In this document: one piece after another, positions 1 through 22,696 of the stretch
Layout: each line of letters opens with the position of its first letter
Position numbering within the stretch: position 1 is the stretch's first letter
From: a virus
Lineage: Duplodnaviria > Caudoviricetes
DNA: 64,000 nucleotides
Direction: 5' to 3' (one strand)
Virus record (IMG/VR): IMGVR_UViG_3300011977_000415
Coordinates: 32,001-96,000 of that record
Made by a program: the position numbers and the translations under genes
The notes under the pieces: generated by a model
The model's input: the letters and a program-made list of their open reading frames with translations, nothing else
The model's database searches: none
What the model was told of the DNA's origin: nothing

Positions 1-86
1 CTGAGCACATTGCCCAAAGCTCCGAACACGAAGTAGCAAACGATGATTGCAACAATATCGTCCATAAGCATTTTCTGTTTTATGGG

Positions 87-578
87 TTATACACTATTAT
101 GAAGATTCACTATGTCCAATCCCTGCCTCTTGGCTTCTCTGACGGTGTAGAACGTGCCGCCCTTGGGATTGCCATCGAAGTAGGCTATGAGACGTGAACT
201 GCGGTTGACCATATAGTCGTTGCGCCTCAGAAGGCAGCCATTGTAGTATTGCTCGCTCAATACGACCACGTCATCCACGATGCGCAGGATGGCATCATAC
301 TTGGCTTGCTCTTCCTTGCTCCACCGGTCAGACTGACCACGGAACGGCACAACGGCTATCACCTGCAAGTCCTTCAACTCGCATTGCAACGAAAGGGCGG
401 CTTCTGCCGCCAGCAGGTCAAATCCCATTGCCATGCCACAATAGAAATACCGGTAGCCGTCGGCATACGCCTTGGCTATCTCCGATTTGAGACATTGCTT
501 CAACTCCCTCCGCTTGGCGAAAGGTACGCTGCGGTGTCCGCTGAAGCATACGGACACTGCCTTGTCGTACTTTGTCAT
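87..578 (-). CDS. SLOG-superfamily protein (DUF1273/YspA-like)
   Basis: Motifs CFSGHR, GMAMGFDLLAAE, RRNDYMVN, GGTFYTV. Confidence 0.85.
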   Translation of the reverse strand: MTKYDKAVSVCFSGHRSVPFAKRRELKQCLKSEIAKAYADGYRYFYCGMAMGFDLLAAEAALSLQCELKDLQVIAVVPFRGQSDRWSKEEQAKYDAILRIVDDVVVLSEQYYNGCLLRRNDYMVNRSSRLIAYFDGNPKGGTFYTVREAKRQGLDIVNLHNSV

Positions 579-581
579 ACT

Positions 582-1148
582 TTACCTTACTTTATAATGT
601 GTGCGTGCGAGGAACATACCGCCAATAACACATGCCCCGAGCCTTTCGAGTTGGTTGGCATACTTGGCATAGCTGAGACCCTTGGTTATCACATCGTCAA
701 AGACCAACACCATTTTGTTGTCGAAGAACGGCTCATCAAACTCAACGACATTCGCCTTGCGGACTTCATCCTCGTTCTTGCGGTTATCGTGGATGGTCTT
801 ACGCTCTCCGCATACCCTCACGTGCTCGTAGCCGTTTTCCGCTCCTGTCAATTCACACACCCTGTGGCAGAAAGCCTTGTAGCGGAGTTCGTTGCTCTCG
901 CTTGTGGATGCTGGAACGGGGGCGAAGACGATGTTCACGCAACCCTTGCCGTAGAGTGTCAGCATATTCTCTGCGGTGCGCTGCGCCACTTCCTCGTAGG
1001 CTCTTCCGTCCTTGAAGTCAAACACTAATTGTCTGTCGGCAATCTCCTTCTCACCCACATTGCGGATGCGTGCGGGATAGTATTTGCAGAACCAAGTCTG
1101 AGGCTTGTCTAACTGCTTTTGGATTTGATAGTCATTCTTGTGTGCCAT
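582..1148 (-). CDS. Phosphoribosyltransferase-fold (ComF-like) protein
   Basis: PRPP-binding motif VLVFDDVITKGLS, plus PVPAS; start taken at ATG 1148 because the longer ORF runs through the hairpin. Confidence 0.8.
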   Translation of the reverse strand: MAHKNDYQIQKQLDKPQTWFCKYYPARIRNVGEKEIADRQLVFDFKDGRAYEEVAQRTAENMLTLYGKGCVNIVFAPVPASTSESNELRYKAFCHRVCELTGAENGYEHVRVCGERKTIHDNRKNEDEVRKANVVEFDEPFFDNKMVLVFDDVITKGLSYAKYANQLERLGACVIGGMFLARTHYKVR

Positions 1149-1182
1149 TGCTCTTATGTTTTTTCTTCCCTTATTTCGGAGG

Positions 1183-1378
1183 CTTTTCCTGCCTGCCCAA
1201 GGGATATTTTTTGCTTTCCAAGAGTGATGGCGATCAAAAAGCCAAATCGGGAGCGAAAAATACGCTCTGCACGCAGAGGAAGATTTTTCGGTCAAATGCA
1301 ATGGACGATTTGGTGTTTGAACAATCGCCAGCATTACCTTTGCAAAACAATATCCGCAGCGGCAAGGCAGGCGAAAAG
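1183..1378. promoter_or_regulatory. Long imperfect hairpin 1, candidate ssDNA promoter for the PRTase-SLOG operon
   Basis: Arms cctgcctgcc/ggcaaggcagg, ggatatt/aatatcc, tggcgat/atcgcca, ccaaatcg/cgatttgg, tip ctctgc-ac-gcagag; TACCTTTG at 1335-1342 on the right arm. Confidence 0.7.
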
Positions 1379-1558
1379 AAATCTGTTATGTAAAAGAGGA
1401 AACGGGCGGGATGGCGTGGGGCGAAGCTGTATATGGGGAAGGACGATAGTTGATATGAGGGAAAAAGAGAAAATCTTGTAATAGGGAACGACATTGCCTT
1501 TTATCAGCATGGAGACAGTCCTACAAGCAGAGAAAACTATTGCCCTAAAAATGAGTTG

Positions 1559-1637
1559 GATAGTATTTTCTAAAAGTAGTATCGACTACGAATAGTATAA
1601 TAGTCGAATAGTTTTTACTACCATACTACGGATAGTA
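1559..1637. repeat. Cluster of TACTA/TAGTA repeats downstream of parA-RHH (candidate centromere)
   Basis: gatagtat, agtagtat, aatagtat, ttactacc, atactacg, gatagtaa within ~80 bp. Confidence 0.6.
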
Positions 1638-1659
1638 AAGTCTGTTTATAGAAGAGATA

Positions 1660-1692
1660 GCGGTATCATCGTCTGTTCGGCGATGATACCGC
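1660..1692 (-). terminator. Perfect 12-bp stem hairpin after the RHH gene
   Basis: GCGGTATCATCG-N9-CGATGATACCGC. Confidence 0.6.
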
Positions 1693-1699
1693 GCGGCAC

Positions 1700-1978
1700 T
1701 CATGTGTCATGCCGCTTTAGGTATTCTGTCATTGCCTCATTGACAATATCACGCAAGGACATCCCTTTCTTGATGGCGAGGTACTTCATCCTCGTGTGGA
1801 TGCTCTTGTTGATAAGGAAATTGCAATGCACCGGCACTTCGGTAGTCTCAGAAACAGACACAGGTGGTGCTGGTGTAGTTTCTGTGACTATCTGCTCCTT
1901 ACTCGGCTTCTTTGTGGAAGAAAGGAGTCCGTTGAGACCGCCTTTCATTCCCTCTTTCAACATACTGCTCTTGCTCAT
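1700..1978 (-). CDS. Ribbon-helix-helix protein, probable type Ib partition partner
   Basis: C-terminal HCNFLINKSIHTRMKYLAIKKGMSLRDIVNEAMTEYL; directly downstream of parA. Confidence 0.7.
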   Translation of the reverse strand: MSKSSMLKEGMKGGLNGLLSSTKKPSKEQIVTETTPAPPVSVSETTEVPVHCNFLINKSIHTRMKYLAIKKGMSLRDIVNEAMTEYLKRHDT

Positions 1979-1985
1979 GGCTATG

Positions 1986-2741
1986 CTATTTTAAGTTTAA
2001 CACTTCTTTTGCCAAAGACATATAATCACTGGCACCATTGGATTTGGGATTATACTCAAAGATAGTCTTGCCGTTGATGGGTGCTTCTGCCAAAGCCACA
2101 TTATCACGGATGACGGTCTTGAAAACCTTCTCGTGAAAACTGTCATTGACGATTTCCCTCACGCTTCGGTTCAACGTCTTGCGGCGATCGAACTGGGTGA
2201 TGACGATGCCGCCCACTTTAAGGTTGGAGTTGAGCCGCTCCTGAACGATGCGGATGATGTCCATCAACTTTGCCATACCTCTCATGGCAAGGTATTGCGC
2301 TTGAACAGGGATGATGATGTAGTCGGCTGCGGTGAGGGCATTCAAGGTCAGCAAGCCCAATGACGGTGGACAGTCGATGATGATGTAGTCGAAATGCTCT
2401 TTGGCGATGGCTTTGGTGATAAGTCCCTTCAAGATAAGCTCCCGTCCCGGCTCGCTGATAAGCTCTAACTCAGCCGCAGACAGGTCAAGGCATGAGGGTG
2501 AGACGGTGATGCCGTTGTGCAACTTGACCAACGGCAAGGTGTACTGTCCACACATTGCGCCATAGACTGTCTGTTCTTCCTCGATGGACAATCCCAAGGC
2601 TTCCGTGAGGTTGGCTTGTCCATCCATGTCAATAGCCAAGACGTTCTTCTTACTCAGTTGCAGAGCTGCCGCAAGGCTTACTGCGGTCGTACTTTTCCCT
2701 ACACCACCCTTGTGATTTAATACTGCAATTATCTGTGTCAT
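1986..2741 (-). CDS. parA: ParA/Soj family ATPase
   Basis: Deviant Walker A KGGVGKST, IDMDGQAN, IIDCPPSLG. Confidence 0.95.
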   Translation of the reverse strand: MTQIIAVLNHKGGVGKSTTAVSLAAALQLSKKNVLAIDMDGQANLTEALGLSIEEEQTVYGAMCGQYTLPLVKLHNGITVSPSCLDLSAAELELISEPGRELILKGLITKAIAKEHFDYIIIDCPPSLGLLTLNALTAADYIIIPVQAQYLAMRGMAKLMDIIRIVQERLNSNLKVGGIVITQFDRRKTLNRSVREIVNDSFHEKVFKTVIRDNVALAEAPINGKTIFEYNPKSNGASDYMSLAKEVLNLK

Positions 2742-2747
2742 AACATG

Positions 2748-2858
2748 ATACTACTATTAGTGAATACTACTTTACTATTCTACTACTGATAGTACATACT
2801 AACCATAGTAAAAGCGGATTTACTACGATTAGTACGTACTACTCTCAGTTGATACTAC
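2748..2858. repeat. Dense TACTA(C) repeats upstream of parA (candidate centromere/operator)
   Basis: atactactat, atactact, ttactatt, ctactact, atagtaca, atactaac, atagtaaa, ttactacg, gtactact, atactacc. Confidence 0.65.
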
Positions 2859-2860
2859 CC

Positions 2861-3286
2861 TCAGAAGGGAAGGTCTTCGCTCTTGTCCTGCGGTGCATCG
2901 GCTGGCGGTACGGGAGCCTCGCCCTCTGCCTTGGCTGCCTTGCGTGCCTTTGTTGCAGGTGTGTCGGTTGCATCCTTCTTCCCTGCATTGACAAAGGCGA
3001 TGGAGTCAGCTATGATGCTATGCTGTATGTGGTTCTCTCCGTTGCGGTCTGTCCAAATGGAAGAAGTCAGTGTGCCTTCCACAAGCACCATACGACCCTT
3101 GGTGAGGTATTCAGCCAAACGGATATGGTTCTCCTTGCTGCTCTTCACCCTTACCCAAGTGGTGATTTGCTTGCCCTTACTGTAGTCGTCCACTGCGATG
3201 TCAACAGCCATGAATGTTCCGTGTGTACCTGTGATGACGCGGCAATCCTTTGCTCCGATGCGTCCGATAGTGTGAGTGTAAATCAT
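2861..3286 (-). CDS. ssb: Single-stranded DNA-binding protein
   Basis: IGRIGAKD, LTKGRMVLVEG, acidic C-terminus ending EDLPF. Confidence 0.9.
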   Translation of the reverse strand: MIYTHTIGRIGAKDCRVITGTHGTFMAVDIAVDDYSKGKQITTWVRVKSSKENHIRLAEYLTKGRMVLVEGTLTSSIWTDRNGENHIQHSIIADSIAFVNAGKKDATDTPATKARKAAKAEGEAPVPPADAPQDKSEDLPF

Positions 3287-3303
3287 AATGTGAAAATGTT
3301 ATA

Positions 3304-3340
3304 GTGGCAAGTTGGTTAGACTTGCCGTTACCTTGTTATT
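3304..3340. repeat. 37-bp direct repeat, copy 1 (internal GGCAAG/CTTGCC hairpin)
   Basis: gtggcaagttggttagacttgccgttaccttgttatt; one mismatch to 3709-3745. Confidence 0.9.
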
Positions 3341-3696
3341 TAAATGACTTTTCTTGTTGATTGAACATAAGCTATTGCTTCATTCATAATTTCTGCTCGT
3401 GACCTACTCTTGTTATCTTGCATCCACTCATCAATTTCAGATTTGAGGAACATGATACGTTTCCCCTTCTTATGGAATGGTATTTGTTTATTGCTTGTCC
3501 AACAATAGATTGTGTGTTCAACTGGATGGGTAGGGAGATACTCACTCAATTCGGAAACACTAAGCCATTCCAATCCCTTATCGGGCTGAATTTGAGTCAT
3601 TAGTGTGGAAAACTTTTCTTCTAAAATCTCCAGCTTGTTTATTACTAATGACAATGCTGATGGCAAGTCATTAAAACTCAATATTTGCTTTTCCAT
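3340..3696 (-). CDS. Excisionase-like helix-turn-helix (HTH_17) DNA-binding protein
   Basis: WLSVSELSEYL..TIYCWTS.KQIPFHKKGKRIMFLKSEIDEW. Confidence 0.85.
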   Translation of the reverse strand: MEKQILSFNDLPSALSLVINKLEILEEKFSTLMTQIQPDKGLEWLSVSELSEYLPTHPVEHTIYCWTSNKQIPFHKKGKRIMFLKSEIDEWMQDNKSRSRAEIMNEAIAYVQSTRKVI

Positions 3697-3708
3697 ATCA
3701 ATATATGT

Positions 3709-3745
3709 GTGGCAAGTTGGTTAGGCTTGCCGTTACCTTGTTATT
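3709..3745. repeat. 37-bp direct repeat, copy 2
   Basis: gtggcaagttggttaggcttgccgttaccttgttatt. Confidence 0.9.
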
Positions 3746-3974
3746 AATATCCTTTCTTCGTCTGCCTTGTATTGGCGACAAAAGACTTGTTGCTGCCTGT
3801 GAGACTGATAGAGCCGCAATTAACAAACTCTCCGTCGGAATAGACTCTGTACTTCTGTCCGCTTACCTCATGCTTCTGTTTGATGCGCTCTCGCATCCAC
3901 TTCTTGGCTGCGGTCAATGAGCAAAAGGTCTCGCTCTCCTTGGTCGTCTCGTCATATACGATGCACTGGGTCAT
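3744..3974 (-). CDS. Hypothetical protein
   Basis: ORF in operon context; alternative start at 3995. Confidence 0.6.
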   Translation of the reverse strand: MTQCIVYDETTKESETFCSLTAAKKWMRERIKQKHEVSGQKYRVYSDGEFVNCGSISLTGSNKSFVANTRQTKKGY

Positions 3975-3982
3975 ACATGCTC

Positions 3983-4537
3983 CTACTTCATCCATGCACC
4001 TATACTCGACGTGACATAGTCCAACTGACCGCCAAATATGTCGCTTGGCTCTATGTCGTATTGTCCATCCCTCACTTCCTTGTCCTCTCCAAGAAGCGAC
4101 AAGTTTCCGTCGGCATCCAAACGTGCTGCGTCTATGACGATGTCACGAGGCTCGTCAAAGAGATAACCTGCCACGATGGGCTGCTCTCCCTCGAAATGCA
4201 CCTCAAAGCCTCCGTCCACCTCCGTGCCGTACTTGCGAAGAGCCGCTTTCAGCTCGTCCTGCTCCCGGTGCTGCAATGCCTGGAGTTGTCCGTGGATAGT
4301 GAGGTCTTGCAGTTCTGCCTCTCGTTTGGTGTGGGTTGCCTCGCCGGTCTTGCAGTCGATGTCATACTTGTGGTAAACCACTGGGATATGGTCTGCCGAT
4401 GTGACAAGCCATGTGATGTTGTTCACTGAGAAGCCCTGTCTGGTGAGGAACTCCTCGATGTCTGAGCCGAGAAGGTGGTCGGCTACGTCAAGATACTCGA
4501 TGCGTGCGTCAGCATCATGCAGGATGATAATCTTCAT
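3983..4537 (-). CDS. Acidic hypothetical protein
   Basis: D/E-rich ORF starting MKIIILHD; first gene after hairpin 2. Confidence 0.7.
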   Translation of the reverse strand: MKIIILHDADARIEYLDVADHLLGSDIEEFLTRQGFSVNNITWLVTSADHIPVVYHKYDIDCKTGEATHTKREAELQDLTIHGQLQALQHREQDELKAALRKYGTEVDGGFEVHFEGEQPIVAGYLFDEPRDIVIDAARLDADGNLSLLGEDKEVRDGQYDIEPSDIFGGQLDYVTSSIGAWMK

Positions 4538-4688
4538 TGCCTTTCTATTTTTAGTGATACAAATAAGTTTGTCGCCCATGTCGCTGGACTTGTTTAACTA
4601 CGTTGAAGAAACTTACGCTCAGCATAGTGAATAAATTCCCTCTGCGTTCGCTTAACCGTTTCTTTCTCTTCCCTCCTTTCGAGACCTT

Positions 4689-4876
4689 TCAGCCTGTGGA
4701 GGGATATTTTCTGCTCCCACAAGCCGCAAGAAAAGACATAAAGACAAATTATGTGTGAAGAATACTCTTTTCCGAGGAAAAGGAAGATTGTTCACAGTCA
4801 CAAGACCTCAAGCAGAATTTGACGATTGTCTCAGACGCGGCTAACTTTGCAGGAAATATGCCTACCACTGCGCTGA
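4689..4876. promoter_or_regulatory. Long imperfect hairpin 2, candidate ssDNA promoter
   Basis: Arms atattttctgc/gcaggaaatat, agccgc/gcggct, caaatt/aatttg, tgtgaa/ttcaca, tip cttttcc-ga-ggaaaag; TTTG(4818)-N20-TAACTTTG(4842-4849) on the right arm. Confidence 0.75.
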
Positions 4877-5657
4877 TTGGAAGAAGATTATTGATATTGG
4901 CTGCAAGAGGAATGATGTGTTATATATAAAGAGGTAAGAAGAAAGATTGAAACAGTAAGGGTGGGCAGTGAAGTGTTTGCAGGTCTGCTGTACCGACATA
5001 AAGCGAGTGTGTTGGCTGACCGGGATGCAAGTCATCAAAGCTTCAGCCTTGATAGCTTGTAGCACGGACAGACAATTCTCTCGCGTCGGTACTTCGGCAT
5101 ACTGTCAGCTTTGGCTAATAGCAACGTGTTGCCATCAGCCAAGGATGTCTGTATGACGACAGACCATGTAACGCTTCGCAAAGGCGTGGGGCAAAGCAGT
5201 ATAATTTAGAAGTAGATAGTAACGTATATCAGGCAAGAAGAGACAGTTGCGCAACGGACAAATCGGGCACTCCTGTCAGCATGACAAATGTGCCTTGTCC
5301 TTGCCGCAGGACACTGAGGCAGATTGGACGTAGCAGACATGTCTGCCACATTCAATATGCCTGAGTGGACAAGAACTGCCTCTTGTATAGCAGAAGAGAA
5401 ATTGTAAAACAGTTGATTAGTGGTAAAGGTGGTATGGGTGGGCAGAATGGCATTACACGGACATTGCCGAAGCCCGATAATGGGACAGCCAGACAGCAAT
5501 AAAGGCAGTTATCAGAAGTGTCAGTTTCTGATAGTGACATTGTTGGCTGCCTGTCACATGGGATTCGTGCGGTGTCCGTACAGTAATGCCGTTCTGAAGG
5601 TGTGGGGCGAAGCGATACAACGCACTTGGACGAAACCACCGCTTATAACAGAAAATA

Positions 5658-5671
5658 TTTTGCAGTCAAAG
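5658..5671 (+). repeat. TTTTGCAGTCAAAG motif, copy 1 (others at 7247, 8398; inverted at 8603)
   Basis: Exact 14-mer seen four times in intergenic DNA. Confidence 0.8.
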
Positions 5672-6043
5672 AGAAGAAGAATAGTAAAGCAGGTGTGGGT
5701 GGGTAGTGAAGCTGTCGCAAGATTGACGGTCTGAATATCAAGGCGAGTGGATAGCCAGTAAAGGACACAATTATCAGAAGCCTCGGCTTCGGCATCTTGT
5801 GGCATAGATGGCAGTCCTCTCGCGTTCAGACCTTGGCATACTGTCTTTCTTGGCTAATAGCGACTTTGTCGCCATCAGCCGGGAATATCTGTATGCCAAC
5901 CATCTTGGTGACGTTTCGCAAATGGTGAGGGACGAAGTGGTTAGAATAAAGGAAGACGGCGTTGCCGTTATGGTTAATAAATGCACATGGTTGTTATTAG
6001 AGAAGATTATCACACGCTATAACAGCAGATTGATGTCCCTGAG

Positions 6044-6069
6044 CAAAACAAAAGCGACCCGAAGGTCGC
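6044..6069 (-). terminator. Rho-independent terminator of the second ssb
   Basis: GCGACC-CGAA-GGTCGC followed by a T-run on the minus strand. Confidence 0.75.
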
Positions 6070-6089
6070 CTTGTTATGGAGAGGAAAGG

Positions 6090-6476
6090 CTATTTCTTGC
6101 CTTTCTTGGTTGCTGGCTTGGCCGGCTCTTCCGCAGGAGTCTCCTCCTTGTCGGGACACTCGTAGAACTTGGTTGCAACCATGATGATTCTGGAGTGCTT
6201 CACGCCATCCTTGTCTGTCCACTCCTCTGGCTTGAAGAAACCCTCGACGGTGAGCAACGTGCCCTTGGTGAGCTTGTCGAATGATTCGGTGTGCTCGTTC
6301 TTGCGCCATGCCTCCATATTCATGAAAGCCGATACGCGGTTGGTTTCCTCGCCGTTCTTCTCCTGACGGCCTACTGCCAATGAGAAGCGTGCTACGCTGG
6401 CGTTTGCGAACTGACGGATTTCTGCATCCTTACCTACGAAACCTGAAACTGTGAAGTTGTTCTCGATCTTTTTCAT
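6090..6476 (-). CDS. ssb: Single-stranded DNA-binding protein (second copy, basic tail)
   Basis: GFVGKDAEIR, SVARFSLAV, LTKGTLLTVEG; ends KKGKK instead of DxPF. Confidence 0.85.
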   Translation of the reverse strand: MKKIENNFTVSGFVGKDAEIRQFANASVARFSLAVGRQEKNGEETNRVSAFMNMEAWRKNEHTESFDKLTKGTLLTVEGFFKPEEWTDKDGVKHSRIIMVATKFYECPDKEETPAEEPAKPATKKGKK

Positions 6477-6480
6477 TTTG

Positions 6481-6726
6481 AATTGAATTTAAAAGTGAAA
6501 CTTAATTTTTACATGCATTCAAAAGCAGGGATGTGGCACCATGTGGGAAGCACCATGAAAATCGTTCGCAATACTCTTTTTGTCGTTGGCGGTAAGGGAG
6601 AAAAAGGAAGATTACGCACTATTTTATTGGTCACAGCGATAGCGGCCACACAAGAAGGAGGAAGTCCTTCGCAGCATCACGCTACCTTTGCATGGTAAAA
6701 ATAAGTGGCTTTCAAATAGCTCAATT
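6481..6726. promoter_or_regulatory. Long imperfect hairpin 3, candidate ssDNA promoter
   Basis: Arms acttaatttttacatgca/tgcatggtaaaaataagt, tgtggc/gccaca, cttttt/aaaaag; TACCTTTG at 6683-6690. Confidence 0.7.
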
Positions 6727-7305
6727 CAGAAAAAGACGGGGCCAAACAATGGAACAAAGGTTGTAAGCAAGGAGGCAATCCGTATGCAACAGACAGGGGC
6801 ACTGCTATGGCTGTATGCCTGGAGAAACGAAGCGGGAAATCCGACCTTACAGCTGTATCATCAGAAGAGTGAGGAGCATGAACACTGATGCACGATGAAC
6901 GACAAGCCTAAGGGTCAGCTTAGCAATAGAGGCATCAAGCCAAAAGAGGACAGACATCAGAGGATTGGCGATAGCACTGTCATCATGCTAAGACCAAGTT
7001 CTGTGTCCGACAAGGAAGAGTCGCAAAAGACAGACGAGTAAAACCAAAAGGCGAAATGACCATTCCTATAACAAGGTACAGAGACGCTTAAAACGGCGAA
7101 GGGACTTTGGCGACGTATCGCTATACAGGTGTCGAAGCATCGCTTCTATAACAGGACTGGAGCAAGTGAGCAAACCGCACAACTTGCTCCCAAGGTATTT
7201 CAGTTACAACAGCCATAACCTCATTGGAGGATTGTCCTAAAAGAGTTTTTGCAGTCAAAGGAAGAAAGAGTCTGCAAGCCACATAGCCAACAGACTCTCT
7301 CCTGA

Positions 7306-7488
7306 TTATTCACAGATGACAACATCATCCTTGTACTCCGTCACTTCCTTGCCGTTGATGAGCTGGACAATGACCTCACAACCCAAGTCCTCGACAATCG
7401 TTCCCTCTGTCTGACCTCTTCGGGGATAAAGCAAGGTGCAGAAACACCCTACAACGCCGTCCAACTGCTCCATGTCTATCGTTGCCAT
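7306..7488 (-). CDS. Small acidic hypothetical protein
   Basis: 60-aa ORF directly after 7504-8088, followed by hairpin agagtctg/cagactct. Confidence 0.6.
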   Translation of the reverse strand: MATIDMEQLDGVVGCFCTLLYPRRGQTEGTIVEDLGCEVIVQLINGKEVTEYKDDVVICE

Positions 7489-7503
7489 ATCCGTTCCTCC
7501 TTG

Positions 7504-8088
7504 TTAGCCGAATGTGATTGGATTGATGCAGAAATTCGTGTCCTCTGCCTCATACTCGTATTCATTGATGAAGTCAATCATCTTCTGTTCGCTTCTTCCG
7601 TCCTGTGAGACACCAGTCTTCTCACACCACAACTTGATAGCATCACCAAAGGTGGAGTAAGCACCCTCACAATCCTCAAAGAGTTCTCCGTATGCAGTGA
7701 CGTAGCACTCTTCGGGGAAGAAGTCGTTCTCATCGTGCGTATAGAAGATGTCGCAACCTGGCTCAACCTCTCGCCAACTGATTGAAAGTTCATCGCCAAG
7801 TGCCTTGTTCACCTCCTCAAAGAACAAGTCGCATGAAGACCAAGCACTTTCGGTGTCAAAGGACAAGAGGGCATAATCGTCTTCCACGTTCTCCTCATAC
7901 TCTGCCCAATAGATGTGTCCTCTCACCGAGATGCCTTTCTTCTCGTAGTCAATGCCATAGTGTTCTGCCAAGAGATACAGATACACATTATTACTGTTCA
8001 CCTCCAACTCTTGGAGTGTGTTCCAAAGGTCTGCCACGGCTTTGCGTGAGCCTGTCACCTTGTACTGAGTGTCGCAAATGTTAGCCAT
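7504..8088 (-). CDS. Acidic protein, possibly YubB/DUF1281 ferredoxin-like
   Basis: MANIC start, FDTESAW and EPG motifs resemble DUF1281 proteins; very D/E-rich. Confidence 0.5.
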   Translation of the reverse strand: MANICDTQYKVTGSRKAVADLWNTLQELEVNSNNVYLYLLAEHYGIDYEKKGISVRGHIYWAEYEENVEDDYALLSFDTESAWSSCDLFFEEVNKALGDELSISWREVEPGCDIFYTHDENDFFPEECYVTAYGELFEDCEGAYSTFGDAIKLWCEKTGVSQDGRSEQKMIDFINEYEYEAEDTNFCINPITFG

Positions 8089-8122
8089 AAGATAAAATTT
8101 TTATTTTCTTCCCTTATGTAGA

Positions 8123-8330
8123 ACCAACTACCATCGGGATTGATTAAAGAATTATGTTGCCCCAAAAGGTGTTATGGCTCATCAATGCAAGGTTTTGCCG
8201 TCAAATACTACCTCTGCCACAATCAGAGCGTGGAGATTTCACGGACAAACCACAGGCACCGACCTTGCAGGATGAACGCCATGACAGGTACCTTTGCAAC
8301 ACAATTCTTATCAAAGCCCGATGGGGTGGT
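8123..8330. promoter_or_regulatory. Long imperfect hairpin 4, candidate ssDNA promoter
   Basis: Arms ccatcggg/cccgatgg, agaattatgttgc/gcaacacaattct, tgcaagg/ccttgca; CTTG-N21-TACCTTTG (8289-8296). Confidence 0.72.
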
Positions 8331-8458
8331 ACATGGCAGACTGCATGGTACAGCAGTGTGAAGTGACGTTATAGGTGGAGATAAGGCTATAAGAGGTTTT
8401 TGCAGTCAAAGGAGAAAAGAGTCCACAAAGTGCAGTATCTACAGGACAAAAACACTTT

Positions 8459-8505
8459 AGTTTACCTTGGTTAGCTCTTATATATATGCTAACCTAAAGT
8501 AAACT
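8459..8505. repeat. Inverted repeat with (TA)n loop
   Basis: agtttaccttggttagc...gctaacctaaagtaaact. Confidence 0.6.
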
Positions 8506-8873
8506 GTATATATGTCCGTCTAAAACCCGAAAACCGTACGGGTCAGCTTACGTCAGAAACAGAAGTATAGAACCATAGAAGTGGTTCAAGAAGTCTTTCT
8601 TCCTTTGACTGCAAAATATTATCTTTGCACGAATCATAATTGCCCTGTAGGATTTAATATAATTTAACACTCTTTGTTGAATGCAAGGAAGAACAGCTTC
8701 AATATGCTGAATATCAGTAGTATAACATTGTGTTAACCCTTAATCTGTAGAAAAGGATGTTATCATACAAAGTAATGTCCATTTGTACTTTTTCTATATG
8801 GTTTTATACTTACATTTGCATATCATTTGTATCTTGATAACAGTAACTAACTGATTATCAATATACTTTATAT

Positions 8874-9403
8874 TTGAGTAATATGAAATATGAAGTGCTG
8901 GAGGAACGTCCCGTAGACAAACAGACTGGTGTTGTGAGTGATGCCATTATTAGGCTTACTGGACAGAAAACCTCCCAATGGTATCCAGACACACTCCGCA
9001 TGGTTATTTATGAGGATTATGCTACCGGCAACATTTATAGATTTCTGAGCGACGATTTCACTCATTCCTACCTTACTATAGCGGAACTCTATAGAGAGCG
9101 CTGGCAAGTGGAATGTTTCTTCAAATGGATTAAACAACGACTGCATATCAAGTCGTTCTACGGAACGAGCCAGAATGCTGTATTCTCGCAGATTTGGATC
9201 GCCATATGCGATTATCTGCTGCTTGCCATTGCTAAGAAAGTATATCATATTGATCAAAATCTTTATATCTTATCGGCTGCCATTGGTAAAGTTCTCTTTG
9301 AAAGGAAACCTTTAGGTGAGCTATTTGTTAAGCCCAAACGTCCTCAGAATGACTCCGATAATGGTCAGTTGACCTTATGGGAAAATTTCTTTGGACAGTA
9401 GTG
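8874..9403 (+). pseudogene. IS4-family transposase, C-terminal remnant with probable terminal sequence
   Basis: IAELYRERWQVECFFKWIKQRL (Y-R-E-K signature); ends ...ggacagtagtg; N-terminal half missing. Confidence 0.85.
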
Positions 9404-9996: not shown

Positions 9997-10983
9997 TTAT
10001 CTGTTCTCCTTATTTATTAAGTTTACTACAACTTTTACCATTACGTCTTTCTCCTCAGTGCGACTTTCTGCAATCATTAATGTCAAAGCCACAAGTGTGT
10101 TGTCGGCAATTCGCTTATGCCCATCTTGTCCATAAAGAATGCCGTTCTTTTCCATAAACCACAAGAACAACATGGCAGCAATACGCTTGTTGCCATCACT
10201 GAACGAATGGTTTTTCACAACGAGATAAAGTAGCATGGCTGCTTTTTCTTCTATTGATGGGTAAAGCTCTTCTCCGCCAAATGTTTGGTAAATCTGTCCA
10301 ATACTACTCTTGAAAGAGTCATCTTTCTCATTTGCAAACCATTTGCTGGCACCAAATTTTTCCTTCAAAGCTTCGATTGCTTCCATTGCATTGCCATATG
10401 TCGCACGAAAAGGCTCTCCTTTTGTCGTTTGCTCTATGTTGAGCGACTGAAAATCATATTTGTCAAGAGTGTCAAGTGCATAAACATAATCGCTTATAAC
10501 ATTAAAGAGGCCTTCATACTCTCCATTTGTTACGCTCTGCTGCAGAATGATTGCTCGCGACATGAGTTGAACAACATTTTTCAAATCTTCATAGTGGTCA
10601 AGACGCCTCTGGTTGACAACATAACCTTTGATCAGGTATTGTTTTAGAATTGATGTTGCCCATTTTCTAAAAGATGTAGCATTTTTGCTATTCACTCGAT
10701 AACCTACCGATATAACCATGTCAAGGTTATAGAATGGTATATCGCGAACTATCTTTCTGCTACCCTCAAAACGAACCTGTGCATTTTTTGCACAGGTTGA
10801 GATCTCATCCAACTCCTCTACCTTATATATGTTTCTGATATGACGAACAATAGACGTTCTGTCTACTCCAAACAACTCAGCCATTTGGTTTTGAGTCAGC
10901 CATACAGTATCTTTTTCAAGCTTTACATTCAGTTCGACCTTTCCGTCTGCAGAACGATATATCTCTATTTTGTTTTCTTCCAT
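9997..10983 (-). CDS. RhuM-family / Fic-DOC domain protein
   Basis: TVWLTQNQMAELF, YNLDMVISVGYRVNS; Fic motif HSFSDGNKR; start at MEENK (10983). Confidence 0.9.
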   Translation of the reverse strand: MEENKIEIYRSADGKVELNVKLEKDTVWLTQNQMAELFGVDRTSIVRHIRNIYKVEELDEISTCAKNAQVRFEGSRKIVRDIPFYNLDMVISVGYRVNSKNATSFRKWATSILKQYLIKGYVVNQRRLDHYEDLKNVVQLMSRAIILQQSVTNGEYEGLFNVISDYVYALDTLDKYDFQSLNIEQTTKGEPFRATYGNAMEAIEALKEKFGASKWFANEKDDSFKSSIGQIYQTFGGEELYPSIEEKAAMLLYLVVKNHSFSDGNKRIAAMLFLWFMEKNGILYGQDGHKRIADNTLVALTLMIAESRTEEKDVMVKVVVNLINKENR

Positions 10984-10994
10984 ATCAATAGTTG

Positions 10995-11135
10995 TCAGTC
11001 TTGTTTGTATAACTCCCATAGGCTTTTTGCCCATTCTTTCATTGTTTGTCGCAATGATTTTGGTTCCATCACTTCTATCATATTTCCTGCATGAAGTAAC
11101 TCCATGACAAAATCATAAGTTGGACGAAGCCTCAA
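10995..11135 (-). pseudogene. C-terminal remnant of a WYL-domain regulator
   Basis: Translates LRLRPTYDFVMELLHAGNMIEVMEPKSLRQTMKEWAKSLWELYKQD*, a WCX-like tail; no upstream WYL domain. Confidence 0.7.
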
Positions 11136-11903
11136 TTATCCCTCATATTCTTCCATTTCTTTTGGAATGGTCATGTTATATTTACGATTAAATGTACCAT
11201 TGGTAGCAGCTTGGATTTTCCCAGTCCCGACATCTATCTTTTCGGGATGCAGTTCTTCGAACCAAAAATGACCTGCCTTTTCAGCCATATACAGAAACAT
11301 CCTCTTTACTCTGTTGTTGTCCAAAGTTTCCAACAAGTGCTGTACAACATCAGAACGTATGGTGGTCAGTTGCTCCATAACATAGTACAGATCCATGTAA
11401 CTGTATGACTTTGGAGCCAAGATTAGACACTCCAAGAACGCTTGTTCTGGAGAAGAAACATATAACGTGCCACTGTCCGTAACTCTTTCTATTGTCTCTG
11501 TATACGAGAAGGCATTTGTGTGAAACACCCGGAAGGTAGCGTCATAGACATCACTTTGCATCCATAATGGTGTCTTGAACGTTGGTGCTGCCACCATCAG
11601 AACAGGCTTTCCCATTGGTACATAATGGTTGAACCCCGTATATTCCAAGGCAGACATTGCAGCCACTCTGAGGGTGCCACCCATCTGTTTGTTATATGAC
11701 GCTATGGCATCATAAGCGTTCAAACGGGCACCAGTGCGACACATCACACCTTTGCATATAGCTGTCAGCCATCCAGAGTCTCTGTATTTCTTTTGCAGTT
11801 GGACTGAATAGCCTTTCTTCTTTAGCCAGTCAGCAAACAACAGTCCTGTCGGTGCGGTATTGGCAAGCAGTTGGTTTATTTTTGTTCCGTATAATATATC
11901 CAT
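11136..11903 (-). CDS. Type IV toxin-antitoxin AbiEi-family antitoxin
   Basis: TKINQLL..GYSVQLQKKYRDSGWL, SSPEQAFLECL, VKRMFLYMAEKAGHFWF. Confidence 0.88.
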   Translation of the reverse strand: MDILYGTKINQLLANTAPTGLLFADWLKKKGYSVQLQKKYRDSGWLTAICKGVMCRTGARLNAYDAIASYNKQMGGTLRVAAMSALEYTGFNHYVPMGKPVLMVAAPTFKTPLWMQSDVYDATFRVFHTNAFSYTETIERVTDSGTLYVSSPEQAFLECLILAPKSYSYMDLYYVMEQLTTIRSDVVQHLLETLDNNRVKRMFLYMAEKAGHFWFEELHPEKIDVGTGKIQAATNGTFNRKYNMTIPKEMEEYEG

Positions 11904-13333: not shown

Positions 13334-16300
13334 ATGATAGCATTCATTGATACGGAGGTGAATCCGCAGACGAAGAAGGTGGCGGATTACGGGGCAGTGA
13401 GGGAGGATGGTGCGGTGTTGCACTCTCACTCCAAGGCTGACTTCGATGCCTTTGTGTCAAGATGCGATACAATATGTGGACACAATATCATCAATCATGA
13501 CCTGAAATATACCGCGTTAAGGGGAAATCCGACGATTGTGGATACGCTATTCCTGTCGCCGTTGCTGTTCCCTAAGCGACCTTATCACCACTTGGTAAAG
13601 GACGATAAGTTGCAGGTGGATGAACTGAACAATCCCGTGAATGATGCGATAAAGGCTCGTAACTTGCTGAATGACGAAGTGGCGGCTTGGAATCAGTTAT
13701 CACCCTATAGACAGAAAATCTACTATTACCTGTTGAATGAAACTAAAGAGTTCGGAGGTTTCTTTAAGCATATCGGATATTCGCCAAATGTAAGTTGGAT
13801 ATCATCAATATTTGCATCTAAACCGGATTGGATACAATTAATTCTGAAGGAATACGATGGGAAGATATGCAACCATGCAGACTTCTACACCTTGGTCAAG
13901 CAGTATCCCATAGAGTTGGCCTATTGTTTGGCTGTGATTGGCGCTGACGACATCTTTTCGATAACTCCAGCATGGGTGATACGCAACTATCCACAGGTGG
14001 TGAATGTGATGAACATACTGTGCAATACGTCTTGCGGAGATTGTGAGTATTGTCATCAACGGTTGAATGCGCACTACGGACTGAAAGAGTTCTTTGGTTA
14101 TGGTGAGTTTCGTATTTTTGATGGCGTTCCTATGCAGCAACAAGCTGTGGAGGCGGCCATCCGTGGCGAGTCGTTACTGACGATTTTCCCAACGGGAGGC
14201 GGCAAGTCGCTGACTTTCCAGTTACCCGCTTTGATGGCTGGAAGGAATACACATGGGTTGACCGTAGTTATTTCACCATTACAGTCGCTGATGAAAGACC
14301 AAGTGGACAACCTCGCGGAACGTGGTATTAGCGACGCGGTGACCATCAACGGATTGTTAGACCCTATCGAACGGGCAACTGCTATCGAACAGGTGGCTGA
14401 CGGAACAGCCAATCTGCTCTATATTGCTCCAGAAATGTTGCGTAGCAAGACCATTGAGCGTCTGTTGATGGGACGCCATGTTGTTCGCTTTGTGATAGAT
14501 GAGGCCCACTGCTTCTCTGCATGGGGGCACGATTTCCGTGTGGACTACTTGTATATCGGTGATTTCATTCGCCAGTTGCAAGAAAAAAAACAATTGAAAC
14601 GGCCTATTGCGGTATCGTGTTTTACAGCAACAGCCAAACAAAAGGTTATTAGCGACATTTGTGACTACTTCAGGGCAAAGTTGGGCTTGGAACTGAAAGT
14701 GTTTGCCGCTAATGCTGAGCGTAAAAACCTGCGCTATTCTGTGCTTCACGCTGATACGGCTGATGAGAAATATAACCTATTGCGCTCATTGATTCTTGAT
14801 CATAACTGCCCCTCGATAGTGTATGTTTCTCGTACTCGACGAACCCGTGAATTGGCACAGCATTTGGTCAACGACGGCATACGTGCCTTGCCTTTCAACG
14901 GAAAGATGGAGGCTGCGGAGAAGATTAAGAACCAGAATGCTTTTATGAGTGGCGATGCACAGGTGATTATAGCCACGTCTGCCTTTGGAATGGGGGTTGA
15001 CAAGAAAGACGTAGGGTTGGTGGTTCACTATAACATCAGCGACTCTTTGGAAAATTATGTGCAGGAAGCTGGACGTGCTGGACGAGACCCGCAGATGCAG
15101 GCTGAATGCTTTGTATTGTATGCAGACAGCGACCTCGACAAGCACTTTATTCTCCTTAACCAAACCAAACTTAGTATCAGCGAGATTCAGCAGGTTTGGA
15201 AAGCCATCAAGGATCTTACAGCAAAGCGAGATAAGGTAAGTTGTTCGCCATTGGACATTGCACGCCAGGCTGGATGGGGAGACGAAATAGATGACATAGA
15301 AACCCGAGTGAAAGCTGCCATTGCGGCCCTTGAAGATGCTGGATTCATACAACGTGGCAGTAATTCACCGCATGTGTTTGCTACGGGCATTGCTGTGAAG
15401 AATATGGATGAAGCCCGCCGCAAGCTAACCATCTCACCTCTCTTTGATGAGCAGTCACGCGAGGAAGCAGCTCGTATTATCAAGTCGTTAATAAGTGCTC
15501 GTGCAACAGCTGAAGGAAGAGGTGCTGAGGCTGAAAGTCGGGTTGACTATCTGGCAGACATCCTTGGTATGAACAAGGCGACTGTCATTCGCAATATCAA
15601 TCTGATGCGGCAGAATGGTATTCTAGCTGACAGCCGCGATATGCAGGCATGGATTACCAAGAGTACGACGGTGAGGAACCTTGATACCATACTACGATTG
15701 GAGCAGTTTATGTTACAACAATTTTCAGAAGAATCACGTCGGTTTAACTACAAGGAATTAAATGAGGAGGCTCAGAAGGCCGGAATGACTTACTCCAATG
15801 TCAAACGACTGAGGATGTTACTGCACTTCATGACGCTGAAAGGGTACATTTACAAACAGGAGCACAGCATTACTGGTTATGTCAACATAAGACTTCAGTC
15901 ATCAATGGAGGTAAAAAAAGCTCGATTTGAACGACGGATGGATATTTGCAGGTTTGTCGTGGATCGTTTGAGTACACAAAAAGACAGCAACAAGGATATG
16001 ATACTTATCAACTTTTCTGTTATAGAACTACTCCAGCAGTTCATTGCCAGTCGCCGGGAAACGATGTTTTCGGACAATGATAAGCCCACAATTGCAGACA
16101 TCGAAGAAGCACTGCTATATCTTACCAAAACGGAACTGATGAAGATTGAAGGCGGATTTATCGTTCTCTATAATACCATGCAAATTGGACGTCTCGTAGC
16201 AACACGTACCAGATATGGCAAAGAGCAGTATCGTTTGTTGGATGAATTCTATAAACAACGCATTCGCCAGATTCATATCGTAGGCGAATATGCCAATCTG

Positions 16301-18067
16301 ATGGTTCGTGACTACAATGCAGCGTTGCGTTTCGTCAACGACTACTTTACAATGGACTTCCGCAAGTTCATCAAACAGTATTTCAAAGAAGAACGCAGGG
16401 CGCAGATTGACCAGAACATCACTCCAGCCAAATACAACAAACTCTTTGGCGAACTCTCTAACCGCCAATGCGAGATTATCGACGACAAGGAGTCGAAATA
16501 TATCGTTGTCGCAGCAGGTCCGGGAAGCGGAAAGACGCGGGTACTGGTGCACAAGTTGGCCTCGCTGTTGCTGCTGGAGGATGTGAAGCACGAGCAACTG
16601 TTGATGCTCACTTTCTCAAGAGCTGCGGCAACTGAATTCAAGAAACGACTCATAGAATTGGTGGGTAATGCCGCACATTATGTGGACATCAAGACCTTCC
16701 ATTCCTATAGTTTCGACCTTGTTGGCAAGCAGGGCAGTCTGGATGAGGCGAAAGATGTGGTACGCCTTGCGGCAGAGATGATTGAAAATGGTGAGGTAGA
16801 AGCATCGAAGATTGCCAAGAGCGTGCTTGTCATTGACGAGGCGCAGGATATGGGACAGGATGACTTCCGATTGGTGCAGGCTCTGATGCGCCAGAACGAG
16901 GAGATGCGAGTCGTTGCTGTGGGTGATGACGACCAGAACATCTATGGTTTCCGCGGTTCCGACTCACGATACATGTTGTCGCTCGTCGAGCAAGAAGGTA
17001 CTCAGACTACGATTGGGCGAACACAGAGTGAGCAGGCTCGACCGAAGGTCAAGTTGTATGAGATGACAGACAATTATCGTTCTGCAAAAGCGGTAGTTGA
17101 TTGTGCCAACCGCTATGTACTACGGATACCTGGCCGTTTGAAGCATACTTCCATACAATCAGCGACAGGGGAAGATGGCAAGGTGATGACTTTGAAGTCA
17201 CTTTTAGATGCAGAAATAAAGGTAGAGGGAAGTACCGCGATACTAACCCGTACCAACGAGGAAACAATGCAGGTTGCCTACGAGTTGGGGCAGCGAGGAT
17301 TGCATGCCACAATTGCGCAGTCGTTGGGAGGTTTCCGTTTTGGAAATCTTGCAGAAGTGCGTTACTTCCTTAAACAGTTTGGCGGGAAAGGTGATGTGAC
17401 TCTTTCAAAGGAGAGGTGGCAAGAAGCCAAACAGCGTACACTGGAAACCTATGCGGCAAGTTCTTGTCTCAGTATTATGCGGCATTTCTTTTCAGACTTC
17501 GAGATAACGCACAAATTCTATTATCGTAGTGATTTGCGTGAATACATCTTTGAGTCGAATATTGAAGATTTCATTGCAGCTGATGATAAGTCTGTATTTG
17601 TGAGCACTATCCACAAAGCAAAGGGTCGTGAGTTTGATACTGTGTATCTCTTGTCGCCAATACCTGATGGGAGGGATATCAATGATATGCGGACTTATTA
17701 CGTGGGGCTCACTCGTGCAAAACGAAACCTGTATCTTGTTACGAATCCTCCCAAGGAGTATTCATCAATATCCATTGCATTGAATATGCATGATGTCTGG
17801 CTTGACTTCTTCAAGGAGCGCAAGAATGTTGTGCTTCGTCTCAGAAGCGGTGACAGTTTGCAATACAAGGATGGCTATTTATTAAATGAAGATGGCATCA
17901 ATGTCGCGGCGCTCTCTGTCTCTGGCAAGGATAAATTGAAAGCCTGGACGGATAAAGGCTATGAGGTGACAAGTGCGAATGTGATTTATACGTTGGCTTG
18001 GAAGCCCCAAAACTATAATACGGAATATGCAGTTTGTTTGGCAAATGTGGTCTTATCTAAAAAATAA
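13334..18067 (+). CDS. DEDD-exonuclease-like + RecQ (SF2) + UvrD-like (SF1) helicase fusion, 1577 aa
   Basis: N-term FIDTE/CGHNIINHD; RecQ PTGGGKS, IDEAHC, FTATA, QEAGRAGRD; SF1 AGPGSGKT, IDEAQD, VGDDDQNIYGFRG, STIHKAKGREFD, YVGLTRAK. Confidence 0.9.
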   Translation: MIAFIDTEVNPQTKKVADYGAVREDGAVLHSHSKADFDAFVSRCDTICGHNIINHDLKYTALRGNPTIVDTLFLSPLLFPKRPYHHLVKDDKLQVDELNNPVNDAIKARNLLNDEVAAWNQLSPYRQKIYYYLLNETKEFGGFFKHIGYSPNVSWISSIFASKPDWIQLILKEYDGKICNHADFYTLVKQYPIELAYCLAVIGADDIFSITPAWVIRNYPQVVNVMNILCNTSCGDCEYCHQRLNAHYGLKEFFGYGEFRIFDGVPMQQQAVEAAIRGESLLTIFPTGGGKSLTFQLPALMAGRNTHGLTVVISPLQSLMKDQVDNLAERGISDAVTINGLLDPIERATAIEQVADGTANLLYIAPEMLRSKTIERLLMGRHVVRFVIDEAHCFSAWGHDFRVDYLYIGDFIRQLQEKKQLKRPIAVSCFTATAKQKVISDICDYFRAKLGLELKVFAANAERKNLRYSVLHADTADEKYNLLRSLILDHNCPSIVYVSRTRRTRELAQHLVNDGIRALPFNGKMEAAEKIKNQNAFMSGDAQVIIATSAFGMGVDKKDVGLVVHYNISDSLENYVQEAGRAGRDPQMQAECFVLYADSDLDKHFILLNQTKLSISEIQQVWKAIKDLTAKRDKVSCSPLDIARQAGWGDEIDDIETRVKAAIAALEDAGFIQRGSNSPHVFATGIAVKNMDEARRKLTISPLFDEQSREEAARIIKSLISARATAEGRGAEAESRVDYLADILGMNKATVIRNINLMRQNGILADSRDMQAWITKSTTVRNLDTILRLEQFMLQQFSEESRRFNYKELNEEAQKAGMTYSNVKRLRMLLHFMTLKGYIYKQEHSITGYVNIRLQSSMEVKKARFERRMDICRFVVDRLSTQKDSNKDMILINFSVIELLQQFIASRRETMFSDNDKPTIADIEEALLYLTKTELMKIEGGFIVLYNTMQIGRLVATRTRYGKEQYRLLDEFYKQRIRQIHIVGEYANLMVRDYNAALRFVNDYFTMDFRKFIKQYFKEERRAQIDQNITPAKYNKLFGELSNRQCEIIDDKESKYIVVAAGPGSGKTRVLVHKLASLLLLEDVKHEQLLMLTFSRAAATEFKKRLIELVGNAAHYVDIKTFHSYSFDLVGKQGSLDEAKDVVRLAAEMIENGEVEASKIAKSVLVIDEAQDMGQDDFRLVQALMRQNEEMRVVAVGDDDQNIYGFRGSDSRYMLSLVEQEGTQTTIGRTQSEQARPKVKLYEMTDNYRSAKAVVDCANRYVLRIPGRLKHTSIQSATGEDGKVMTLKSLLDAEIKVEGSTAILTRTNEETMQVAYELGQRGLHATIAQSLGGFRFGNLAEVRYFLKQFGGKGDVTLSKERWQEAKQRTLETYAASSCLSIMRHFFSDFEITHKFYYRSDLREYIFESNIEDFIAADDKSVFVSTIHKAKGREFDTVYLLSPIPDGRDINDMRTYYVGLTRAKRNLYLVTNPPKEYSSISIALNMHDVWLDFFKERKNVVLRLRSGDSLQYKDGYLLNEDGINVAALSVSGKDKLKAWTDKGYEVTSANVIYTLAWKPQNYNTEYAVCLANVVLSKK

Positions 18068-21421: not shown

Positions 21422-22696
21422 TCATAAATCATTGAATCGCGACATCGCACGTTCTTTCAGTTCATCAACAATCGCCATGTATGGTTTCATGGCTTTCATG
21501 TCGGCGTGTCCCGTCCATTTCATTATCACCTCGGACGGGATGCCAAGTTGCAACGCCGTAACAACAAACGTGCGCCGCCCGCAATGGGTGGTGAGCAACG
21601 CCCATTTCGGCATCACTTGTTCGATTCGTTCGTTCCCTTGGAAATAAACAATCCGGATGGGTTCATCAATTCCGCATACTTGCCCCAAGATTTTCAAACG
21701 GGCGTTCATTTTCACGTTCGATATTACAGGCAACGCCAAACCATCCTTGATGTCATCATCCTTGTATTTGTCCAATATCGCCTTGGCGTGGTCGTTCAAT
21801 TCGATGCGCAACCCATCATGCGTTTTTTGCGTTACCACATCAAAAAAGCCATCCTTGATGTCGGTGCGTTTGAGTTTGGCAACATCCGAATATCGCAATC
21901 CGGTGAAGCAGCAGAACAAGAACACATCCCGGACGCGCGCAAGGCTTGATTGTGTGGGCGCGAATTGCCATGATTCAAGGCGCGATATTTCATCACGGGT
22001 TAAGTAAATGATTTCCTTGTTCCCGTCCACGCCTTTCATCTTTGGTTTGAACGTGTCATGCAAATTGCCGGGGTAATACCCTTTTTTCGCCGCCCATCGC
22101 AAAAACCACCGCAAGAACGAAAGGTTCTTGGAAATGGTGGTGTTCCGCAAATCCTTTCGGAGCAATGAATCAACGTAACCTTGCAATTTGCGTTCGGTCA
22201 ATGCCGGGAACGAAATATTTGGGTCGTATTCATAAAGATGTCGCCGGAGGGCGGCAAACTTTTCGTGTGTTGAATCCGTCCATTGATTACGTTTGCCCAT
22301 TTCATCCGTGAATAGGTCGTAAACCTTGAAGAAGTTATCATTGCAAGATGGCAAATCGGCATTCGTTTTTGTCTTGCGTCCAACCATATCATTGAACAAA
22401 TCCTTGATTTCGCCCGGCGTTGGTGTGCGCTTTTCAAGCAGTTCATAACGGGCGATGATTTCATTCACCACCGATTGCCATTCATCAATGGTGCGGTTAA
22501 TGGCATCGGCATTCGGTGATGATGGCAGCGCGCGCCCTGTGGCGGCATCCCAATCATCGGCATCAATGTTTTGCCCCAATGGAAAATCCAATGGGCGTTC
22601 GCCGTGCAACGTTATGCGCATACGGATGGCAAGGTTCTTTGATTGCCCGGCGGTGCGCTTGTGCAACAAGAATCTTATTGTTCGTTTGATGTGCAT
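21422..22696 (-). CDS. int: Tyrosine integrase (Bacteroidetes Arm-DNA-bind/SAM-like type)
   Basis: TGLRYSD, THCGRRTF, WTGH, catalytic Y in MKPY. Confidence 0.95.
   Translation of the reverse strand: MHIKRTIRFLLHKRTAGQSKNLAIRMRITLHGERPLDFPLGQNIDADDWDAATGRALPSSPNADAINRTIDEWQSVVNEIIARYELLEKRTPTPGEIKDLFNDMVGRKTKTNADLPSCNDNFFKVYDLFTDEMGKRNQWTDSTHEKFAALRRHLYEYDPNISFPALTERKLQGYVDSLLRKDLRNTTISKNLSFLRWFLRWAAKKGYYPGNLHDTFKPKMKGVDGNKEIIYLTRDEISRLESWQFAPTQSSLARVRDVFLFCCFTGLRYSDVAKLKRTDIKDGFFDVVTQKTHDGLRIELNDHAKAILDKYKDDDIKDGLALPVISNVKMNARLKILGQVCGIDEPIRIVYFQGNERIEQVMPKWALLTTHCGRRTFVVTALQLGIPSEVIMKWTGHADMKAMKPYMAIVDELKERAMSRFNDL

Follow-up and report, generated by a model that had tools for sequence, protein, structure and literature searches.

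The 64,000-nucleotide (nt) stretch analysed here, hereafter the window, spans bases 32001–96000 of a 105-kb contig (IMG/VR record IMGVR_UViG_3300011977_000415). Near its left end lie four long imperfect hairpins (H1–H4), each carrying on the (+) strand a –7 promoter box of the Bacteroidota type. Window positions 1–8400 occur at 100% identity in records of Bacteroides finegoldii and Phocaeicola massiliensis, and a 5.6-Mb chromosome matches contig bases 1–40878 at 99.98%, with coupling protein, VirB4 and TraM genes further left there. Given these near-identical records and transfer genes, the DNA carrying the hairpins is, judging by its sequence, an integrated, recently mobile Bacteroidales conjugative element of the MobV type. 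An original prediction had interpreted the hairpins as promoters acting on single-stranded DNA (ssDNA), an interpretation that the present analysis supports. We propose that they are probably fold-back promoters for the host primary sigma factor on the transferred (+) strand of this element, with activity on ssDNA as the predicted property.

Hairpins upstream of leftward genes

Folding of the (+) strand as ssDNA revealed that all four hairpins are far more stable than dinucleotide shuffles (z –3.2 to –8.4; H1 –4.14, H2 –5.31, H3 –3.21 and H4 –8.37), as the original prediction of long imperfect stems had it. The –7 box was found on the right arm of each hairpin at the predicted places, reading TACCTTTG at 1335, 6683 and 8289 and TAACTTTG at 4842; the last belongs to a textbook promoter, TTTG-N20-TAACTTTG, beginning at 4818. 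Behind every hairpin a leftward gene was confirmed. A leader motif said to recur at 1161–1174 and 8104–8117 is indeed present there, and a third variant lies at 4664–4673. In the predicted mRNA, this 'AGGGAAG' motif makes up the 3' arm of a stem-loop. H3 has neither a –33 TTG nor the leader motif. An Rfam scan matched no model at E ≤ 1.

The box had also been predicted to sit in a bubble. This holds for H1 and H2, whose boxes are fully open (pairing probability 0.00–0.24 for A2–T7), and in part for H3 (A2 0.04, T5–T7 0.6–0.98). It fails for H4, in which positions 3–8, flanked by two 4-nt bulges, adopt a slipped register and pair with a probability of 0.99, with T1 at 0.04 and A2 at 0.48.

A hairpin family with one common plan

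A relaxase search placed 33 of 397 genomes in the family. We compared about 33 elements, with up to 40 kb around each and relaxases 41%–100% identical. Among them, 31 related MobV elements hold 127 hairpin copies, 123 of which lie on the same strand; a single element can hold up to seven or more. When the sequence around each TAnnTTTG was folded, long stems appeared at 85 of 645 boxes on the relaxase template (+) strand versus 3 of 486 on the other. When the box was ignored and only the apical motif scanned, 96 stems were found on the relaxase template strand versus 5 on the other, all five from one element in which the whole block, genes included, is inverted. As a control, 110 ordinary gene-facing boxes were compared, and just 3 of them are located within such long stems. 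The box lies about 51 nt past the apical motif, and the variants TAnnTTCG and GAnnTTTG were also seen.

The hairpins form many clusters that blastn does not join, yet they follow one plan: a 5' arm of T-rich-TGC, a loop, a stem, CAA, AATAC, an apical stem-loop, and then a 3' arm of a GGAAGATT-like segment, TTG, the –7 box and GCA. Some 50 nt above the –7 box, the AATAC/GGAAGATT internal loop is conserved; within AATAC, the fourth base is paired in 0 of 75 cases. Some families also contain a TAGC..GGTACTTG motif, which we take to resemble the CS-6 box of ssoA. The motif-plus-box pattern occurs in 77 of 101 Bacteroides genomes, with 9 control hits in all, and in 28 of 401 Bacteroidales genomes, with chance accounting for much of the Bacteroidales count. 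The box is again on the mob operon template strand in CTnDOT-like elements that have a PF03432 relaxase, one of them in B. thetaiotaomicron. B. thetaiotaomicron VPI-5482 has at least four family units, distributed over three chromosomal elements and a 33-kb plasmid; the plasmid unit sits upstream of an ArdC-like gene. Their boxes are at chromosome positions 75098 (–), 1420133 (+) and 2861814 (–) and at plasmid position 31360 (–). In the element analysed here, a fifth, weaker hairpin (z –1.7 alone) lies downstream of mobV at contig ~18650–18890, preceding a leftward operon with a DUF2958 gene; its family aligns poorly and the consensus fold is unreliable in the middle.

Arm covariation across homologues, named beforehand as a test, was found. 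In the H4 family, two-sided changes occur at 21 of 74 pairs, compared with 9.5 in shuffled and 4–8 in slid controls, and six further families exceed a re-paired-column null. Isolated mismatches favour the fold of the (+), box-bearing strand (GT 69/AC 37, AG 63/CT 29, GG 40/CC 5), which is the more stable one in 83 of 86 hairpins with DNA parameters and in 74 of 86 with RNA parameters. No DNA-specific class of mini-hairpins recurred consistently among the apical DNA loops, so the loops cannot tell DNA from RNA.

Across 84 non-redundant hairpins, pairing is seen in 82%–86% for the flank above the box; within the box, it is 52% at T1, 20% at A2 and about 60% at T5–T7. A pre-melted full bubble, seen in only 31 of the 84, is not general; the commonest box feature is instead an open A2 (67/84, 80%). 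With sigma70, the base equivalent to A2 flips out first at the edge of the open complex; by analogy, the open A2 may mimic this edge. A TTG lies 15–23 nt above the box in 64 of the 84 hairpins, against 10.8 expected, and is paired in 58. The left arm was also considered as a leftward –7 box and rejected, as it is not such a box.

An opposite-strand open reading frame (ORF) starts 36–136 nt from the box partner in 84 of 86 hairpins, and a same-strand ORF is found at 14 of 86. Ordinary promoters of double-stranded DNA (dsDNA) for the leftward genes had been named as evidence to the contrary. They are depleted on the gene strand, where a canonical box occurs at 9 of 86 hairpins versus 24.7 expected from shuffles. 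In Bacteroides, start sites lie about 3–6 nt past the box, according to the transcription start site (TSS) rows of B. thetaiotaomicron, from which our predicted start offsets were taken; the predicted starts therefore fall in the lower stem. For the RNA beginning there, a stem-loop roughly 10 nt in from the 5' end is predicted in 58 of 65 long leaders. Loops of the GNRA type are confined to the gene strand (23 of 74, versus 0 of 67 on the opposite strand), and A at –12 and –13 in 76 of 83 matches the A-rich Bacteroidota initiation pattern. The genes encode SSB (22 cases), a protein for which YubB is a lead (14) and a PRTase-like protein (11), followed by DUF4313, DUF1281 and ArdC-like proteins and many unknowns. 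From element to element, hairpin families are combined with different gene families. That the box lies on the 3' arm and points away from the gene in dsDNA is a consequence of any fold-back promoter and not a special feature.

Two of the RNA runs considered are contig sets identical to each other and flat like DNA, and two raw-read runs lack the element, so that they are uninformative either way. For B. thetaiotaomicron under non-mating conditions, the primary-TSS sheet (PMC7366714), covering positions up to 5.9 Mb, has no entry for any gene behind the three hairpins of the chromosome, and the tables of small RNAs (sRNAs) and small ORFs (sORFs) have no row at the hairpin boxes. The missing primary TSS fits silence in dsDNA only weakly, because just 37% of coding sequences have one.

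The transferred strand and the surrounding element

The original prediction placed an origin of transfer (oriT) left of the window. An oriT-like site was found 8.6 kb to the left on the box strand, and the relaxase gene also lies there. Upstream of mobV, the (+) strand carries a conserved core GTATTAGGCT. On this strand, 20 of 22 elements have a variable inverted repeat separated from G^C/T by exactly 8 nt, the same architecture as the minimal oriT of pMV158 (IR1+8; PMC3105389). The site is identical at 7 of 10 positions to the nick of Tn5520, ATAAG^CTACG, which is written as its complement in table S1 of PMC5789077, a convention that we checked against the F, RP4 and pMV158 rows. The candidate oriT is kept in elements with relaxases down to about 50% identity and is apparently inverted relative to mob compared with pMV158. 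We infer a nick on the (+) strand at contig 23419/23420 (window –8581), so that the (+) strand would be sent rightwards into the window. The four hairpins lie 9.9–16.9 kb past this putative nick; over all elements, 95 hairpins are on its leading side and 28 on its lagging side, with sampling of 7 kb versus up to 31 kb.

The usual MOBP rule is that the strand transferred is the one serving as template for the mob operon. The position of the box on this strand in the elements with PF03432 relaxases therefore gives independent support for the box strand being the transferred strand.

The features of the element are listed in Table 1. With ParA as bait, only two true relatives were found. TACTAC/TAGTA repeat clusters at 1557–1640 and 2745–2860, on either side of parA-parG, are candidates for parS or a ParG operator. 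A 42-nt direct repeat with a terminator-like stem (3304–3345 and 3709–3750) brackets the HTH_17 gene; the gene between the repeats is absent or swapped in homologues, which suggests a cassette. The long ORF-poor spacers to the right of the hairpins (4880–6050, 6730–7300 and 8330–8640) hold further repeats and stems. The segment 5073–5182 recurs at 5812–5922, TTTTGCAGTCAAAG is found at 5658, 7247 and 8398 with an inverted copy at 8594–8616, and GTGGGGCRAAGC at 1416, 5186 and 5602. Further right, an insertion-sequence transposase fragment occupies 8874–9401, and the identity of the matching chromosome stops at 8878. Then follow RhuM/Fic and AbiEi genes (9997–11903), a 1577-residue DEAD plus UvrD helicase (13334–18067) and a tyrosine integrase (21422–22696). 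Rightwards of the integrase lies an apparent prophage, which explains the classification of this contig among virus records.

Table 1. Hairpins, predicted leaders and genes of the element (window positions unless marked as contig)
Feature	Position	Strand	Remarks
MobV relaxase	contig 21871–23322	–	left of window
Candidate oriT of MobV clade	contig 23320–23500		CAGCTTGCT, variable inverted repeat, GTATTAGG^CT, then GGGCAAGCCC
Resolvase and ArdC-like gene	left of window
YpsA/SLOG protein	87–578	–	PF06908, E 2e-22
PRTase-like protein	582–1148	–	first gene behind H1; PF00156, E 0.007, below cut-off
Predicted mRNA leader behind H1	1146–1209	–	5' stem-loop, UCCCU pairs with AGGGA at 1165–1172; A-rich initiation region
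H1, candidate ssDNA promoter	1183–1378	+	apical motif 1259–1285; TTTG 1309–1312, 22-nt spacer
H1 box	1335–1342	+	open; G1342 pairs with 1214; predicted leftward start ~1208–1210
ParG-like ribbon-helix-helix protein	1700–1978	–
ParA ATPase	1986–2741	–
SSB-family protein	2861–3286	–	PF00436
HTH_17 (excisionase-like) protein	3340–3696	–
83-residue ORF	3744–3995	–	without Pfam family
Bacteroidota hypothetical protein	3983–4579	–	first gene behind H2; start 4579 or 4537
Predicted mRNA leader behind H2	4640–4709	–	5' stem-loop, GAAA loop; AGGGAAG variant 4664–4673
H2, candidate ssDNA promoter	4689–4876	+	apical motif 4761–4789; TTTG 4818–4821, 20-nt spacer
H2 box	4842–4849	+	in 7x6 internal loop, T1 paired; G4849 pairs with 4714; predicted start ~4708–4710
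SSB	6090–6476	–	gene behind H3; commonest gene type behind family hairpins
H3, candidate ssDNA promoter	6481–6726	+	upstream of ssb; apical motif 6570–6613
H3 box	6683–6690	+	T1 paired, A2 open; predicted start ~6510–6512; leader short, unstructured, AT-rich
194-residue protein	7504–8088	–	behind H4; nearest named look-alike the YubB/DUF1281 ferredoxin-like cluster, a lead only
Predicted mRNA leader behind H4	8086–8155	–	UCCC/GGGA stem, weak alone (z –0.8)
H4, candidate ssDNA promoter	8123–8330	+	apical motif 8204–8238; TTG 8265–8267, 21-nt spacer
H4 box	8289–8296	+	mostly paired between two 4-nt bulges; predicted start ~8154–8156

Putative model, alternatives and significance

These results enable us to propose a putative model. 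Initially, the relaxase would nick the (+) strand about 97 nt upstream of mobV, and the strand would enter the recipient 5' end first, rightwards into the hairpin region, as the oriT architecture suggests. Each unit of about 200 nt, as folding and covariation indicate, would then fold back so that its 3' arm serves as the non-template strand. In the computed fold, the –33 TTG would be base-paired and the –7 box placed where the stem is distorted or open, with its A usually unpaired as at the edge of an open complex. RNA polymerase would start a few bases below the box, copy the 5' arm and head leftwards into ssb and the other small establishment genes. The mRNA would begin with a protective stem-loop, followed by an A-rich ribosome site. 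Finally, synthesis of the complementary strand would remove the fold and leave the genes promoterless, a step demonstrated for F and pESBL alone. Like Frpo transcripts, those made here may in addition serve as primers for the second strand. More tentatively, and with a probability that we put well below even, Bacteroidota conjugative elements with unrelated relaxase types might share an ssDNA promoter architecture of their own, in which the AATAC/GGAAGATT loop, present only in the fold, would bind a host or element factor (activator, primase or helicase), and the same box might fire antisense once double-stranded, yielding a two-state switch.

Several observations weigh against this model. The prototype of MOBV, pMV158, transfers the strand that codes for its relaxase (PMC5863519), the opposite of what we infer here, and the case for the transferred strand therefore rests on the local oriT architecture. 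Of 123 hairpins, 28 are downstream of mobV and would be transferred last. In one genome (G102, C1 ~1.926–1.939 Mb), the block from ssb to the resolvase gene, hairpins included, is inverted relative to mobV; a resolvase-mediated inversion or a misassembly is possible. H4 has a largely paired box, as do 13 of 84 hairpins, and the spacing of the –33 TTG is broad (17–22). As to the counts, hairpin copies are related and not independent, and the G8/C9 pairing was built into the hairpin selection.

The model is reminiscent of the ssDNA promoters described in enterobacterial plasmids, namely Frpo1/Frpo2 (ssp1a/b), ssp2 and ssp3 of plasmid F, and ssi and the class 1–3 ssDNA promoters of ColIb-P9 and pESBL (PMC9849209, PMC12672017, PMC11541004). 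In both cases, several long imperfect stem-loops per element lie upstream of ssb and small establishment genes, the fold rebuilds the promoter boxes of the host, and the genes are templated by the transferred strand, which for the present element is putatively the (+) strand. Unlike Frpo/ssp, the hairpins here have Bacteroidota –33/–7 boxes in place of –35/–10; fall into many sequence families sharing the AATAC/GGAAGATT internal loop; and occur in MobV and CTnDOT-type elements, also at the lagging end. Promoters of the Frpo/ssi type were earlier searched for with sigma70 boxes (PMC11541004). Such searches would miss the present hairpins, as originally predicted, a sigma70 site being found in only 2 of 84. 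A blastn search against PLSDB detected no similarity outside Bacteroidales. The hairpins are predicted to work like Frpo/ssp and are not sequence-related to the enterobacterial Frpo/ssi family. A literature search, in which subscription journals were thinly covered, retrieved no report of ssDNA promoters in Bacteroidota.

A second class of relevant systems is the RNA polymerase-primed single-strand origins, such as ssoA of pMV158-type plasmids, the minus-strand origin of filamentous phages and the sso of ICEBs1, in which RNA polymerase recognises an ssDNA hairpin with an unpaired or mismatched –10-like element. The hairpins resemble them in presenting an unpaired or mismatched promoter element on folded ssDNA, with recognition here predicted. 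They might accordingly act mainly as single-strand origins, where RNA polymerase, or primase via the apical motif, primes the second strand, or the stem forms a replication roadblock, with expression secondary. Such a role would need the same strand and geometry, and it would suit the hairpin copies at both ends of the transferred strand, the TAGC..GGTACTTG motif of some families and the finding that Frpo/ssp promoters prime and stall synthesis (10.64898/2026.01.09.698686). We consider it unlikely: unlike those origins, every unit here comes together with an ORF that has a leader stem-loop and a ribosome site, and seven or more hairpins per element exceed any need for priming.

A still smaller chance is given to the box being an ordinary dsDNA promoter that fires rightwards to yield a small or antisense RNA while the hairpin serves another role, an arrangement compatible with fold-back promoters. 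The ordinary sigmaABfr promoter of Bacteroidota is TTTG-N19-21-TAnnTTTG (PMC7366714), and the hairpins have the same boxes and a similar 8-mer spectrum. In dsDNA, box and TTG make up a complete promoter. The spacers on the right-hand side are long and structured, and the next ORF there is, in 62 of 84 cases, an opposite-strand gene reached at its 3' end (median 254 nt). Unlike ordinary sigmaABfr promoters, these point away from the gene in dsDNA and are embedded in a long stem. A rightward promoter leaves unexplained the covarying stem upstream of the start, the open A2 and the promoterless leftward genes; moreover, T1 is absent in 15 of 86 boxes, and the B. thetaiotaomicron sRNA and sORF tables are empty at these sites. 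Least probable of all is that the structure acts as a long gene-strand RNA leader, transcribed from some unrecognised promoter further upstream, or as a cruciform when dsDNA is supercoiled, since, even though an imperfect palindrome folds on both strands and a cruciform would expose the same promoter without transfer, the box strand is the more stable with both parameter sets, the mismatch types agree, gene-strand boxes are depleted, and the many bulges would disfavour extrusion.

In summary, this study describes a family of hairpins that are probably fold-back promoters on the transferred strand of Bacteroidales conjugative elements. These elements dominate gene flow in the gut, resistance genes included, and their establishment in a new cell is poorly understood. 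A searchable ssDNA-promoter signature would mark the transferred strand together with the early genes, which encode mostly unknown proteins that are candidates for anti-defence. It would also show that a mechanism so far proven in enterobacteria alone extends to a phylum whose sigma factor differs.

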